The notes under the pieces are model-generated. The model was not told the origin of the DNA and did no database searches. It worked only from the letters and a program-made list of their open reading frames with translations. A stretch of 64,000 bases of DNA, taken from NCBI GenBank assembly GCA_000182565.2, contig KQ257465.1; one strand, given 5' to 3'. Source of the stretch: Spizellomyces punctatus DAOM BR117. Taxonomy: Eukaryota. Below, in pieces: positions 6,523 through 45,170 of this stretch (the first letter of the stretch is position 1; each line of letters starts with the position of its first letter). Both the position numbers and the translations under genes were made by a program.

Positions 6523-7814
6523 ATGCGTGCTATTCTCGCCGCCGCCCTTCTCGCCACCGCCGTATCGGCTGCGCCATCCCGCTACTCGTCCAACAACTAC
6601 GGCTACCAAGAGCACTACGAGCCATGCAAACATGCTGTATGTATTGGACTGTCAGATGCAATCAGTGCTTGCTATCATTGCTGACATTATTGTGGTTTCA
6701 TTAGCAAAAGCAGACTTGGTGGGACAATAATGGTGTAGAGTACGGATGGGACAACTACGCCAACAAGGCTTGCTTGGTCGTCAAGGAGCACAATTACTAC
6801 AACGACTATAAGCAGGACTACCACAACGATTACAAGCACAATGAGTACAAGAACGATTACAAGAACGATTACAAGAACGACTACAAGAACGACTACAAGA
6901 ACGACTACAAGTCGCACAACTCGTACTTTGCACCCGCCGTTCGTCCCTACTACGCTGCACCATACGCGGCCAACAGCTACGAGTCTTACTGCGATGCCAA
7001 ATACCAGGACAAGAGCTACAACGAGTGCAATGAGTCTTACGAATACGCCAAGAAGAACTACTGCAAACAGTACGGTTCCAGCGGAACCAAGCACGGTGAT
7101 TGTATCACGGAGCTTTCCAAGAAGAAGGACGAGTGCGTCAAGTCGATTGACCACCACAAGTCTTACTGCTGGGACAAAAAGTACCTTCCAGAGGGAGGTT
7201 ACTACGAGACTCCCAAGAACGACTATTACGAAGAACCCAAGAAGGATTACTACGAGGAACCCAAGAAGGACTACTACGAAGAGCCCAAGAAGGATTACTA
7301 CGAAGAGCCCAAGAAGGACTACTACGAAGCTCCCAAGAACGACTACAAACAGGACTACTACGAGGCCCCAAAGAGTTCTTACCTGCGCCACCCTGCTGCA
7401 TACGAGCAACCTAAGCAGGACTACTACAAGCCTGAAAACCAATACTACGAAGCCCCCAAGCAGTCTTACTACGAAGAGCCCAAGAAGGACTACTACGAAG
7501 AACCCAAGAAGGACTACTACGAAGAGCCCAAGAAGGACTACTACGAGGCGCCCAAGAAGGACTACTACGAGGCGCCCAAGAAGGACTACTACGAGGCGCC
7601 CAAGCAACACTACGAGGGCGGCAAGACCTACGACTGCTCTAGCGCCAAACATTACTTCGACTCTACGGGCTCCCCTACTTTGAAGCAATGCGCATCCCTT
7701 GCTTGCAGCCCTGGCCAGACTTCCGACTACATCCAGCGTGCATTATACCAATGCTATGCACTTGAACAGGCTGCCAAGCGCAACAACGGTGGCTACCTTC
7801 CCAAGGGATGGTAA
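6523..7814 (+). CDS. Secreted Tyr/Lys/Asp/Glu-rich repeat protein (~407 aa); exons 6523-6636 and 6705-7814
   Basis: Signal peptide MRAILAAALLATAVSA; GTATGT..CTGAC..TAG intron joins in frame; KNDY and EEPKKDYY arrays; strong TAC/AAG/GAC codon bias. Confidence 0.88.
7213..7605 (+). repeat. Coding 24-nt tandem repeats (E[EA]PKKDYY) in two arrays; 12-nt KNDY array at ~6849-6911
   Basis: Repeated gaagagcccaagaaggactactac units visible in the sequence. Confidence 0.95.
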
Positions 7815-22943: not shown

Positions 22944-24478
22944 ATGAAGTTTATCGTTACAGCTCTCGTCCTTTCGTTGGTTGGTACCTCCGTAGCCGAT
23001 ACTCGACTGAACCGAAGGCGATTCGGACAACAGAACCCACCTGTGGAAGGAAAGATTGGACAGGTGAGTTTGTCCGTGCAATGGCTGTGCCACATACGCG
23101 TTCAGCAACTGACTTGCCATCACGTTAGCTTCAAGCCCTAAAGAATGGTCTGGCTGGTACTCTCTCTGGACAAGTTCCCTCCACGCTTCTCGGTGCCGCG
23201 GACCCATGTGCTAAACTCCAACTGGCCGACACCATCGTCCAAGCCGCTCCTGGTGACGCAGCTACTCTGGCAGCCGCAAGGGAACTCGTCAACGCCGAAC
23301 AAAACTTTAACCCCGCCAACAACGGCAAACCCAAGTTCTGTGGAAACCCCAATCTCCCTGCTACAAAAGAACTGCGAGGAATCCTCCCCAAGATTTCGGA
23401 AGTGGACAACCTCCAGGGTGCAGCGGCGTTCAATCAGATATCGTCCAAAAGTCTGGCGGATGCCCTTGCCGGCAATGTAAAGAATGTCGATGGCAAGAGT
23501 GTAGCAGATCAGATTGTCGAGGCTGGCTTTACGGACTTTGCGGGCGCCCCTGTTGCTGGAAACAACAATAACGGTAACCAGAACAACCAGAATAATACAA
23601 ACAACGGGAACAACCAGAACAAGACAAACAACGGTAACCAGAACAACCAGAACAAGACAAACAACGGCAACCAGAACAACCAGAACAAGAACAACGGCAA
23701 CCAGAACAACCAGAACAAGAACAACCAAAACAACGGGAATAACCAGAACAACCAGAACAAGAACAACCAACACAACAACAACAACCAGAACAATCGGAAC
23801 AATGGGAACAACAACGTCGTTACAGTTACGCAGACCGTTACCCGCACCGTAGTCGTCTGCCCCACAAACGTTGCTGGTAACAACAACAACAACAACCAGC
23901 ACAACAACAACAACCAGAATAACCGGAACAACCAGAACAACCAGAACAAAAACAACCAAAACAACGGGAACAACCAGAACAAGAACAACCAGACCAACAA
24001 CGAGAACAACCAGAACAAATACAATCAAAACAACGGGAACAACAACAACCAGAACAAGAACAACCAAAACAACGGGAACAACAACAACCAGAACAAGAAC
24101 AACCAAAACAACGGGAACAACAACAACCAGAACAAGAACAACCAAAACAACGGCAACAACAACAACCAGAACAACCAGAACAAAAACAACCAAAACAACA
24201 ATGGAAATAACGGGAATGTGATTTTCCAACCCAAGTCGGTGGAGGGCCTCAACTTTGACCCCCTTGTACTCTCTAACGATCCCAACCGCCGCTTCCAAGT
24301 TGCGGGTGATACCTTTGTTGGGGCTGGAGCTGCTTGCGGGCGTGTCGGAGACCGTCTTTTCAACAGCTGTGCAAACAAATTGAATGCTGAAGGCCGTGGC
24401 AACGAGTTGGGAACAGTTTGTGCGCCTGCGCGGGACGCCGCCAAGACCGATTGTGCTGCTGCTGCCGCCAATGTGTAG
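22944..24478 (+). CDS. Secreted protein (~489 aa) with Cys-containing terminal domains and a long Asn/Gln-rich linker; exons 22944-23063 and 23129-24478
   Basis: Signal peptide MKFIVTALVLSLVGTSVA; RRRFGQ; LLGAADPCAKLQLAD; FCGNPNLP; C-terminal RFQVAGDTFVGAGAACGR...FNSCAN. Confidence 0.88.
23561..24216 (+). repeat. Coding AAC/CAG-rich imperfect tandem repeat (NNQNKNNQNNGNN)
   Basis: aacaaccagaacaag units repeated; interrupted by VVTVTQTVTRTVVVCPT. Confidence 0.95.
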
Positions 24479-25182
24479 AAAGACTTACTTGTGACATATT
24501 GTAGATTTCTCTTTTTTGAATGTTTTGTACATGCATAGTGCGTATAGATGTCGGCTTTGATGTGAAAGTCTCCCAGGCGAGCATCTTGAAGGACAGCGGG
24601 ACTAGTCCAAACAAGTAAATAAAATCATATAATTTTGCACTCATTCTGTTCCGTTGCTCTTCAGGAGTTTATTGCAGAGGAAGGAAGCAACTTTCGCTGT
24701 GCAAATGGTAAACCTGACCAGACCTGAACTGTGACATGGGCTATGAGTTGCGCAGTATGCATTCAAACCACACTGCAATTGGTGTTTGGTGACTCCGACG
24801 CGGGACCGCGTTCTTGACAGAGCAGCAGTGAGCTTTTCTCTGAACAGAGCGCGTTAAAGGTTGAGACTTGAAGCCTCGTTTGGATGGTTATACGGCAGTT
24901 GGTGAGTGTCTATGACATTGCTTTTGGGGAACCCTGGATGGTGGACACGTAATGGGAGAAGCGTCGCCCCACTGGCGAGTAAGCAGCAGTAGGGCGCGCA
25001 GCAGATGTCCAGCGATATCTATCCGGCACCGGACTGGGAGACGCAACACAGTGGATCTATTGCTAGATTTAGAGTCAATCCCGCGTTGCGTGTGCACCAT
25101 ACTCATGACGAAATGCTCCCTCTCCCCAGAAAATCAAATATCGACGCCCGTACTGAGACATTAGCCCATCTTTGCCAACAAG

Positions 25183-41798: not shown

Positions 41799-42070
41799 GA
41801 TGCGAACGAAGCTGTTGAGTGATATCCACCAGCAGAAGGATTGAGTTCTTGCAGTCTATCGGGGTCTGAGGACTCTGGAATTGGGACCTGTAAGTTTGTA
41901 GGGTGAACCACTTCCTTTCAGTCCACATTGGATCCAATTTTAACCAAAAATCAAGAGGATGTATTCTGACCTAATCATGATCACAGCTTATTTCCGACAT
42001 GCATAATCTGCTACCAGAGGACAGTGCTAGGGAATCCTTTACATTTACCTGCATAGCCGAATCCCTATCG

Positions 42071-43377
42071 CTATTGGCGTGCACTCCTGCCGGTCTTTCC
42101 TCCCGTAGAGGACTTGGATATATCTTCCACTCCCTTTGCAGTACGACCTTTGGGTAAGAGCACCGAATGGATATTGGGGAGGACACCCCCCTGGCTAATT
42201 GTAACCTACGATATCACCATTTTTAGAGTAATAACCAAATGATTGCAATCTGGATGCTCCTTACATTGGAAAGAAGTCTGTTTAACTCATCATCGTTACG
42301 AATGGCGAGTTGCAAATGACGAGGGATAACGCGAGTCTGCGAGGTTTGTTTTGTAGGCTGTTGGTTCTACAATGCTCACGCACTGTAATGTACCTTTTTG
42401 TTATCACGGGCTGCGTTTCCAGCGAGCTCAAGAACCTTGAGGTTGGGTATTGTCAAAGAGACACAAGCAAGTCAGATGAGTGTAATCAACGTTGGTGGAG
42501 AAGGTTGCGGTTACCTCAGCTGTAAGGTCTGGTGAAAGGATGAGAAGTTCATAAAACACTTAGCATAAATGTGAATGAAACTTTTACTTACACTCCAGGA
42601 CTGCTGCGAGATACACAGGGGCACCACTGCCAATACGTGGAGCATAACGACCTTTCTTCAGCAATCGGTTGATGCGACCTATATGAGAGCAAGGAGTCAG
42701 TTCTGTTAAATGGTAAGTATTCTTCTTTCTAGAAATCTCACCAACAGGAAATTGAAGTCCAGCTTTCGCAGACCGGCTCGTCATTTTGCCACGCGGAGTG
42801 CGGGGCCCCTATAGACTTTGATTAGTATCAGGAGAATCTAATAGCCCATTGACTCTTCTCCAGCATAATATACAGTCTGTGGCCTAGATGTTGGACGAAG
42901 TTGTGCGGGTGTTGCCGCCGACGCCAAGTCAATGGTTTCGCTTTCCCTGATCTCGTTCGCAGAAAGTTCCCTTTCTCCCTTCTTATGTGGCATAAGCACA
43001 CTTTCAATTCCTGTGACGCTCTTCCTACGAGGAGCTTTCAGAGGCGACCCTTGTGCCGTCCTTAGGTCACGTAGCGCTTGAGCGTCTTCCCATGTTGTCA
43101 CTGGTTCCTCCAATATTTCTACAGCGGTATGTTCCACAACAGCTGTCCCCTCAAACAACTTTTCTCCACTAGGAGAGGTTTCATTGACCGCAGTGATAGC
43201 AAACTCTGCCTCTGCTGCAACAGCTATCTGGTCCTACCAGGAGGTAAGAACATCCTTGCTACACCTATGCGTGGTCATACTAACCCTAGGACGACCGCTT
43301 TTAGCAAGGAGACTGGCAGCTTCCTTGACAGTCTCGACCATTGTACGCCCTTTCTGCATGGACGGAGTTGACGACAT
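42071..43377 (-). CDS. Histone H2A variant with long N-terminal extension, 8 exons including a 14-nt microexon (42515-42528)
   Basis: Core [103 protein letters not shown]; upstream exons 43377-43285 and 43233-42874 splice in frame. Confidence 0.85.
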
Positions 43378-43573
43378 GATTGTATGGTACTGCTCGTTGC
43401 AATATAATGTCTGTGTCAAGAGTTTGGAACGACAGGCCGCGTCTGCTTACGAGACAAGTTCCACTCCTCAATTGGGTCATGTGATTCGATCGGTGGGGAG
43501 GCTGGCAGGGTTCTGGGCAGGGTTGGCTGAAAGCGCTTGGCGATCACGGTTTTAGCAGAATTGGAGGTCTCGA

Positions 43574-45170
43574 ATGGATGCAAGACAGGGCAACAAACGT
43601 TCTAGTTCACCATCTCTGGGGCGCTCAGGCGCTTACAAGCGGATACGCAGTGATAACTACTCAAGCCGAAACGGATCCTCACCTCGCCTCTCTTCCGATA
43701 CAGCTAGCTGTACGTCGACACACCCAGCAAATTCCTTCTCCGACCGACCTCTGGCAACCTTCCCACTTTATCCCCTAGACCGTTTTCAAACGCGATGTGC
43801 ACAGTATCAACAACCAACCGAAATCGGATACTTTTCATATAATGAGAAAAGAGAGATGACCCTTCAAAGCGATGCTGAATTGGTAAGACGGATAATTTAT
43901 CCATGTACGTCTCTGAACCGTTTCCTCTCCAATGGCGAGGTGGCGAGAATGGCCTGGATATAACATTCTTATGGATCTTAGAAGTGGTACTATGAACCTG
44001 ATCTGAAAGATTGCGATTTATCGGATGGCTTCCCCGATCGCTACATTACACGAGATCCGGTTCCGGAGAGATTAGATGCCTTACTAAAGTGTCTGCAGAA
44101 TGTCAACGCACTAGCAGAAGAGTCGGGAAAAACGGGGGTTACCCCCAACTTTTGCACATGTATGGCGGTGGTCTGCTCCATCCTTAATTCCGGGAAAATG
44201 TCGATCGTATCATCTCACAATGGATTGTCTTGTAGGGCGGGGAATCATGACCAAGATTCTTTGCACACCCTACTCACGAGATGAATGGGAGCTAGGTGTA
44301 ACCCGCTACAAGGATACAATCTATATGGAGGAACATGAGTCAGACGAAAAACGGCAACATGCCTTCGGTGCTTCCGACCGGGATAAACTCATGAGTTACT
44401 GGGGATATAAATTTGAATCTCTCAGTACTATCGATAAGCCTCCTTCAACCCTCACTGGACCTGATGACGAGGCACTGCAAAGACGAAAGGAAGAATGTGT
44501 GAACACAAATGTGCAGTATTGCAGCGTGGTGCGGACACGGTTAGGGAACAACATTTTGGTCATGGGGGCGGAAGTGGATTGTCTGGTTGCTGGTGAGTGA
44601 GCCGACCTCCATGGCGATCAAGTGGGCATTCCAATGACTTCCCCAATGCAGATGCAAAGCCTACCAGTAATCCTCAAAGCGCGTATGCAGAACTAAAAAC
44701 AAATCGTATCATCTCCAATGAACGGCAGCAGAAATCGTTTGAGCGGTAGGTCTTGACCGGGCCAATTTACACGTCGTTAAATACAGATCGGTGCTTTCGT
44801 AGTAACGCTCTTCCACCACAGACACAAGCTTCTCAAAATTTGGGCGCAATCCTTCCTTCCTGGTATACCTCGAATCATTATTGGCTACCGAACGGACTCA
44901 GGTCACATCCAACATATCCAGCACCTCAAAACCATGGACATACCCCGCATGGTTCGCGGCACGCAGCCCAATATATGGGACGCAACCGTGTGTATCAATT
45001 TTGCAAATGGGCTTTTAGAGTTCTTAAAGGGTGTTGTGGTGGAGGATGACCCAGATGTGGTTTACACTGTTCGATTTGGGAAGCCTTTTGGGGAAGTCAG
45101 GGTGTTGAGGAGAGAAAAGGGGAAGGTGGGACTGGAGGGAGTATTTGTACCGGACTGGTATCGAACGTAG
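43574..45170 (+). CDS. RAI1: RAI1/DXO-family decapping nuclease, multi-exon
   Basis: YQQPTEIGYFSY, RGIMTKILCTPY, YWGYKFESL, QYCSVVRTRLG, GAEVDC, ELKT, KLLKIWAQSFLPG. Confidence 0.93.

Follow-up and report, generated by a model that had tools for sequence, protein, structure and literature searches.

A candidate cassette exon in the N-terminal tail of a histone H2A gene of Spizellomyces punctatus

The window analysed here is a 64,000-nucleotide (nt) stretch of contig KQ257465.1 from the chytrid Spizellomyces punctatus DAOM BR117 (GenBank assembly GCA_000182565.2). Its minus strand carries a histone H2A gene with eight exons and seven introns, provided that a 360-nt open stretch, termed E2 (42874-43233), is counted among the exons. 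The reading favoured here, to which we give about an even chance, is that E2 is a cassette exon and that the gene yields two isoforms, of 169 and 289 amino acids (aa), of an unpaired, intron-rich, polyadenylated H2A without an SQ(E/D) motif. Skipping of E2 would give the annotated 169-aa protein, and its inclusion would give the 289-aa form. A wider proposal, held more tentatively and at somewhat less than even chances, is that splicing switches the N-terminal tail of a nucleosomal H2A, a genus-restricted cassette of 120 residues, first acidic and then basic, providing two packaging forms from one gene.

An in-frame candidate exon between two annotated exons

The gene itself is known. Among all GT-AG exon chains in the window, a unique one reproduces letter for letter the 169-aa protein P0007, 'histone H2A [Spizellomyces punctatus DAOM BR117]', through seven exons (43377-43285, 42808-42742, 42678-42592, 42528-42515, 42435-42394, 42336-42265 and 42205-42071). 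This reference model, for which matches to PF16211 and PF00125 are precomputed, keeps the first exon (E1), skips E2 and counts 43284-42809 as one intron of 476 nt; the model's five other introns, at 57-79 nt, are one sixth as long. The reading proposed here concerns the same gene, with 120 further residues placed in frame, as a cassette, after residue 31 of that model and before residue 32. An initial annotation, made from the sequence alone, had joined E1, E2 and E3 through GT-AG introns of 51 and 65 nt, and all of these coordinates are present, in phase 0. Its limits for the exons further downstream had to be corrected to those of the last five exons of the reference chain.

E1 (43285-43377) begins with the ATG at 43377 and spans 93 nt, or 31 codons (MSSTPS...SGRPR), whose letters are identical with P0007. 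It is followed by the 51-nt intron (43234-43284; GTTAGT...CTTAC...TAG), which the reference treats as the first part of its longer intron, then by the 120 stop-free codons of E2, and then by the 65-nt intron (42809-42873; GTATAT...TACTAAT...TAG). Both introns run from GT to AG and each has a branch-like site; those of the 65-nt intron, branch-like site and acceptor alike, would serve the long E1-E3 intron too. All three E1/E2/E3 junctions are in phase 0, and E2 is symmetrical (phase 0/0, 360 nt). E3 (42742-42808), the GPRTPRGK exon, contains the start of the conserved H2A N-tail and alpha-N region together with an internal ATG at 42784. With the downstream exons fixed by identity with the reference, the coding sequence that includes E2 is 870 nt long and encodes 289 aa, of which 166 lie ahead of AGLQFPVG. 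The protein of about 290 aa and the extension of about 160 residues before the histone fold that had been described at first are therefore right if E2 is included; the annotated model has 169 aa, its secure extension before AGLQFPVG is 46 residues, and the RNA libraries considered below hold no evidence of the E2 junctions.

By statistics and by comparison between species, E2 looks like a coding exon. Codon tables, with stops excluded, were built from 19 open reading frames (ORFs) of the window, 17 of them supported by Pfam and two of 560 and 622 codons. On this scale E2 scores 0.064 bits per codon against 0.019 +/- 0.054 for 47 leave-one-out windows of confirmed coding ORFs, and no stop-free off-frame stretch of at least 80 codons reaches its score (0 of 45, maximum 0.060). 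It ranks ninth by codon usage among the 122 ORFs of at least 100 codons that were not used for training. When the letters of E2 were shuffled as mononucleotides, 500 of 262,060 shuffles (0.19%) stayed stop-free in frame, and 3 of those 500 attained its codon-usage score. The reading frame of E2 is open from the acceptor TAG onwards and offers no in-frame ATG other than codon 81 of the 120, so that E2 would be translatable only if spliced to E1. Two other identities for the stretch were considered and rejected. The plus-strand ORF at 43082-43552 (157 codons), which is antisense to E1 and E2 and ends just before the RAI1 ORF, is a shadow ORF (score -0.014, rank 54 of 122), and E2 is single copy in the window, which speaks against a repeat or mobile element.

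The peptide encoded by E2 is acidic and then basic, in agreement with the earlier description. Its first 60 residues hold 13 D/E against 3 K/R, with an isoelectric point (pI) of 4.05 and a net charge of -10; its last 60 hold 7 D/E against 10 K/R, with a pI of 9.98. The pI of E1 is 11.0. The basic half includes SPLK (residue 94); the 289 aa contain no other match to S/T-P-x-K/R. Of the two motifs that had been likened to cyclin-dependent kinase sites, SPLK fits this pattern, while TPR is a minimal TP only (T-P-R-G). No Pfam family was found in E1 or E2; a CDC48_2 match (E 0.32-0.37) was rejected as below the cut-off, and an ESM Atlas search with E2 gave no usable match.

A counterpart of E2 is present in a second species of the genus. 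In an HMMER search of 1.84 billion representative proteins E2 gave three matches at E <= 1e-3, of which one is real (E 4e-46). This is P0004, a 209-aa 'hypothetical protein' from Spizellomyces sp. 'palustris', in which E1, E2, E3 and the following exon, E4, are joined at the same residues, with E2 included. The other two, P0005 and P0006, are repeat proteins of 1616 and 1049 aa (24-26% identity; E 4e-5 and 3e-4) and were rejected as compositional. A search with the extension part of P0004 matched P0004 itself and P0007 only. Between the two species 95 of the 120 residues of E2 are identical, with one 3-residue gap from an in-frame deletion of three codons, no stop and the same junctions; SPLK is replaced by SPQK. 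Identity is 30 of 31 residues in E1 and 50 of 51 in E3 and E4 together. The P0004 model misses the 14-nt micro-exon described below, runs into the intron and ends early. An AlphaFold2 model of P0004, computed without an alignment, has a mean pLDDT of 44.7 and is low in the histone-fold part too, so that it is uninformative on order or disorder.

At the level of sequence, what is conserved in E2 is its open frame, its phase and its splice sites. The species differ in E2 by at least 26 base changes and one insertion or deletion, after removal of one alignment artefact, and about 3.3% of single-base changes in E2 create a stop. Given these figures, survival of the frame in both species adds modest support, roughly ten-fold by our own estimate, beside the much stronger intrinsic signals.

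Protein searches detected no relatives of E1 or E2 outside Spizellomyces. A word search with E2 covered longer proteins of 211-2000 aa and left no scoring match among 1793 candidates; a metagenome scan with E2 protein patterns gave 595 pattern matches, none of which was confirmed, and the same kind of scan with a 26-nt stretch of E3 gave no match. A search with the whole of P0007 was dominated by fish tandem-H2A models and is silent on chytrid orthologues. The suggestion of an undescribed lineage-specific variant is partly upheld: E1 and E2 have no detectable relatives outside the genus, but the gene had already been annotated as histone H2A. As far as found, three things are undescribed: the cassette, the canonical N-terminus in its internal position, and the fact that the two Spizellomyces annotations disagree. 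Since these annotations conflict, and one of them is truncated at the micro-exon, catalogues and histone-variant surveys that use them would misclassify the gene.

An unpaired H2A with a canonical core

The best explanation of the gene is an H2A variant of unpaired, replication-independent type with a canonical core. The histone fold is complete, as are the acidic patch and the docking domain. The last exon (42071-42205), which encodes the docking domain and C-terminal tail and ends with the stop, matches PF16211 (E 1.4e-12, 47.6 bits against a cut-off of 20). The PDB yields 207 matches at E <= 1e-10, and the best 60 are all of H2A type (canonical H2A, H2A.J, H2A.X and yeast H2A.2), headed by canonical H2A, H2A.J and H2A.X chains at E about 1e-55 to 1e-56. 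In a phmmer alignment the protein runs without a gap along canonical human H2A from Ser1 through LLPK, with SGR, R11, K13, R17 and S18 matching. The acidic patch and docking domain are likewise gapless against human H2A; LEYLTAEVLELAGN retains the acidic-patch glutamates, and RNDDELN differs from RNDEELN by a single conservative E-to-D change. The alignment bears out the canonical-like core and intact acidic patch of the initial annotation.

Features of the other H2A classes are missing from this gene. No SQ[ED] motif, as in H2A.X, occurs anywhere in the 289 aa, where the only SQ belongs to the conserved VTISQGG and the tail ends in GKTGRSARQ, just as first described. None of the best 60 PDB sequences is named H2A.Z, which agrees, by names rather than by phylogeny, with the earlier statement that the core is not H2A.Z-like. 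Neither is any of these 60 a macroH2A; 25 residues follow LLPK, and no macro-domain match was found. The C-terminal tail has no S/T-P-x-K/R of the H2A.W kind, the only such motif being the SPLK of E2. Replication-coupled histone genes differ from this one in that it has no H2B pairing in the 64 kb, no Rfam stem-loop and a poly(A) tail. Another locus, SPPG_02344/02345, is reported to hold the divergent H2A/H2B pair of canonical type in S. punctatus (PMC7213984).

At the C-terminal tail the protein reads LLPKG where canonical H2A has LLPKK, with Gly opposite the second of the two lysines (Lys119 in the chain numbering). We take Lys119 to be the site of ubiquitylation by PRC1. A variant with Gly in its place might escape the PRC1 mark; PRC1 orthologues are reported in S. 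punctatus (PMC10638273).

In the N-terminal tail the end of E1, SGRPR, aligns with the canonical N-terminus SGRGK, and the join of E1 to E3 restores a tail of canonical length. Because SGRPR and E3 align gapless from Ser1, E2, if used, would be an insertion within the canonical tail and not a plain prefix, landing between canonical tail residues 5 and 6. The gapless tail also argues that the 169-aa form is a functional design and that translation does not start at ATG 42784. The residues ahead of Ser1 number 26 in the 169-aa form, or 146 with E2, and SGR is internal.

Because the core is complete, this H2A most likely replaces canonical H2A in nucleosomes with H2B. Few protein segments are as conserved and as heavily regulated as core-histone tails, and the H2A N-tail exits the nucleosome between the DNA gyres, so that additions to it meet DNA or neighbours. 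The constant prefix of 26 residues would hold SGR in an internal position, and an internal SGR should alter N-terminal modifications that require a free Ser1. The acidic block of E2 could weaken contacts between tail and DNA or bind basic partners, and the basic block with its SPLK may be compared with the SPKK-type tails of sperm H2B variants. The isoforms would differ in tail charge and contacts, and the long form could serve as a charge switch or as a partner-docking arm, perhaps at particular stages of the life cycle. The role in zoospore or spore chromatin that had been suggested at first is speculative. To our knowledge, no other core-histone N-tail is remodelled by such cassette splicing.

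A comparison with known histones places these features in context. Canonical H2A and H2A.X share with this gene the gapless alignment from Ser1 to LLPK and the residues of the acidic patch and docking domain. Unlike canonical H2A, it has 26 (or 146) extra residues, Gly at Lys119, seven introns, no paired H2B gene and polyadenylated transcripts; unlike H2A.X, it has no SQ(E/D). The isoforms of macroH2A differ in the C-terminal macro domain. Alternative splicing that gives isoforms from one H2A-family gene is described for macroH2A1.1/1.2 and for Oikopleura H2A.Za-c (PMC3380720). These are precedents for isoforms of one H2A gene, whereas the alternative part here would be a disordered-looking N-tail cassette whose splicing is a candidate.

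Tail additions bearing S/T-P-x-K/R on a core histone also have parallels. The N-terminal SPKK/SPKR extensions of sperm H2B in sea urchin and Hydractinia, and the C-terminal SPKK of H2A.W, are proposed to bind linker DNA and so to compact chromatin (PMC5011920). The sperm variants carry 5-7 tandem basic repeats, whereas this gene has a single SPLK, half of its cassette is acidic, and it encodes H2A and not H2B. Tetrahymena H2A.Y, a lineage-specific lettered variant, is reported to bear a leucine-rich-repeat domain with phosphatase-regulating activity (PMC3380720); it too is an H2A-family protein with a large non-histone addition, but E1 and E2 belong to no Pfam family. Each of the histone variants with large additions (macroH2A, H2A.W, sperm H2Bs and H2A.Y) has uncovered a different way in which chromatin can be changed. 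If the reading of E2 as a cassette is true, this gene would represent a new lineage-specific solution, with SGR buried behind 26 residues, SQ and Lys119 absent and a possible 120-residue cassette in the tail.

Full-text searches of the literature yielded no paper on this gene and none on an N-terminally extended H2A from any chytrid; one retrieved paper (PMC6597758) was rejected because its match concerned eIF4E and not histones. Lineage-specific histone variants are reported, by mass spectrometry, in all species of a study for which S. punctatus was grown (10.1101/2021.11.30.470311), and stage-resolved RNA sequencing of S. punctatus exists according to two reports (10.64898/2026.10.14.759114; PMC12695648). 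The species is a genetically tractable chytrid, and the H2A gene is open to tagging and deletion.

Transcript evidence and rival explanations

The RNA evidence comes from X1, X2 and X3, libraries of one study available as contigs, and from X10, the raw reads of a 3'-tag library. The three runs labelled root metagenome contributed a single contig apiece, and no claim about habitat is made from them. Spliced contigs of X1 and X2 contain the junctions 42203/42263 and 42336/42394, which are also crossed by eight reads and one read of X10, respectively. The X2 contig holds the letters of the micro-exon between 42437 and 42592 and the join of E4 to E3, where its loose end lies 15 nt into E3. RNA thus demonstrates splicing at four 3' junctions, and it demonstrates polyadenylation as well: six X10 reads have a loose end with a T-run at 41938, the poly(A) site. 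The depth of X10 peaks at 120.7 at 42022-42082 and is only 0-0.36 upstream of 42450.

One RNA contig falls in E2. It comes from X3, is 165 nt long, lies wholly within the exon candidate (42919-43083), is unspliced and has two differences from the window. Its depth of 2.6 is close to those of the spliced exon contigs in X1 (2.4) and X2 (3.9) and exceeds what would be expected for an intron of a gene covered about three-fold, a weak hint that favours E2 in mature transcripts.

A number of observations weigh against the inclusion of E2 in any transcript. The E1/E2 and E2/E3 junctions are found in no read or contig, and the X3 contig could derive from unspliced pre-mRNA. Its differences from the window, at 43013 and 43023, are both non-synonymous (T74I and K71E); at codon 71 S. 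sp. 'palustris' likewise has Glu. The depth of X10 is zero in all bins spanning E2 (42815-43241), and in this 3'-tag library it is only 0.18-0.36 over E1 and E3. The sole annotated S. punctatus protein of the gene is without E2, and no 289-aa model occurs in a collection of 5.8 billion protein clusters. The P0004 model is probably ab initio, so that it is evidence of a conserved frame and conserved splice sites rather than of splicing. Exon skipping is described as comparatively rare in fungi (PMC6142364).

The pattern of residue changes between the two species points the same way. E2 differs at 22 of 117 residues and E1, E3 and E4 together at 2 of 82 (Fisher p = 2e-4); the rate in E2 is not significantly below that of the read-through intron codons (4 of 10 differ; p = 0.12), and only 3 of its 22 substitutions are similar-scoring. 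The protein sequence of E2 appears weakly constrained, as it would be in a disordered tail or in non-coding DNA.

These observations can be read to mean that only the 169-aa protein is made and that E2 is an untranslated part of the 476-nt intron, either a former exon that is always skipped or a stretch left open by chance. We consider this unlikely, though it deserves serious weight. It agrees with the reference model, with the gapless canonical N-tail that the E1-E3 join restores, with a substitution rate in E2 indistinguishable from that of the ten read-through intron codons, and with the empty X10 bins. Roughly 30 bases in these bins end at the E1 donor and some 22 more lie where E3 begins, while E2 has none. 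These counts fit one spliced E1-E3 read with the usual 51 or so aligned bases, a weak hint that rests on arithmetic on bins and not on a reported joint; no E1-E3 joint is listed in X10, whose depth on the 5' part of the gene is 0-0.36. What this explanation leaves unaccounted for is the openness of E2. The shuffles and the codon-usage rank given above make an in-phase open frame of 120 codons improbable by chance, the frame is kept in a second species with the same junctions and an in-frame indel only, the 476-nt intron would be six times as long as the others, and a fragment of E2 occurs in an RNA library at exon-like depth.

The opposite possibility, that E2 is constitutive, that the product is the 289-aa protein and that the 169-aa model is a gene-calling error, seems to us improbable. 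At 51 and 65 nt, and with a branch-like site apiece, the introns on either side of E2 do match the intron sizes of the gene, and the coding marks, the conservation, the inclusion of E2 in the S. sp. 'palustris' model and the X3 contig would all follow from it. An ab initio caller should include an exon with the score of E2, and its skipping in the reference model therefore suggests that transcript evidence stands behind that model. Moreover, SGR lies at the exact canonical distance from AGLQ in the skipped form only, and X10 has some depth on E1 and E3 but none in the E2 bins. Very improbable, in our estimate, is a third explanation, in which a transcript starting in or after E2 gives a 130-aa H2A from ATG 42784, and E1 and E2 form a separate upstream ORF or transcript. 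In its favour, the context of this ATG is good (CAAAATGAC), and no contig extends beyond E3 in the upstream direction, that of X2 ending after 15 nt of E3. A start there leaves six residues before AGLQ, however, and the translation upstream of it still matches the canonical tail (R11, K13 and SGR). E1 and the residues ahead of the ATG are conserved in S. sp. 'palustris', E1 belongs to the reference model, and X10 has a few minus-strand bases over E1 and immediately 5' of its ATG. The reading of E2 as a cassette exon accommodates both the canonical design of the skipped form and the coding marks of E2.

Remaining exons, neighbouring genes and other open reading frames

Downstream of E3 the gene continues on the minus strand with E4 (42592-42678), which encodes part of the histone fold and is placed by identity with P0007 and by the spliced X2 contig. 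The micro-exon of 14 nt (42515-42528; ...YLTAE) lies within the histone fold and has the same two lines of support. E6 (42394-42435) is fixed by P0007 identity and by the spliced contigs of X1 and X2, and E7 (42265-42336) by these and by the X10 read across 42336/42394. The last exon is followed by a 3' untranslated region (41938-42070) that ends at the poly(A) site near 41938. No histone 3' stem-loop was matched in Rfam at E <= 1; a long non-coding RNA match at E 0.13 was rejected as sub-threshold.

The neighbours of the gene are RAI1 on one side and, downstream, a WD40 gene on the minus strand. The absence of an adjacent H2B, noted at first, was confirmed, for no second histone match occurs in the 64-kb window and hence no H2B partner. 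RAI1 lies on the plus strand, where PF08652 matches three ORFs from 43982 to 45167, and it is head-to-head with the H2A gene. The spacing of about 200 base pairs (bp) that had been given is 196 bp (43378-43573) when measured from the ATG of E1 to the first ATG of the RAI1 ORF at 43574. In X10 about one read each was seen at 43608-43700 on the minus strand, antisense to the coding start of RAI1, and at 43486-43546 on the plus strand, upstream of the RAI1 ATG. These reads suggest that the divergent H2A/RAI1 promoter is very compact, perhaps overlapping.

Two other places in the window hold long ORFs of unusual composition. The 369-codon ORF at 6705-7811 on the plus strand has the highest codon-usage score in the window (0.255), and a 351-codon ORF is open opposite to it; the product of the 369-codon ORF has no Pfam match, has Cys-rich ends and contains tandem repeats of NDYK and (D)YYEEPKK. 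At 23129-24484 each strand has a long ORF (449 and 448 codons), and the plus-strand ORF, also with no Pfam match, encodes long Asn/Gln-rich repeats of NNQNK type between ordinary-looking ends.

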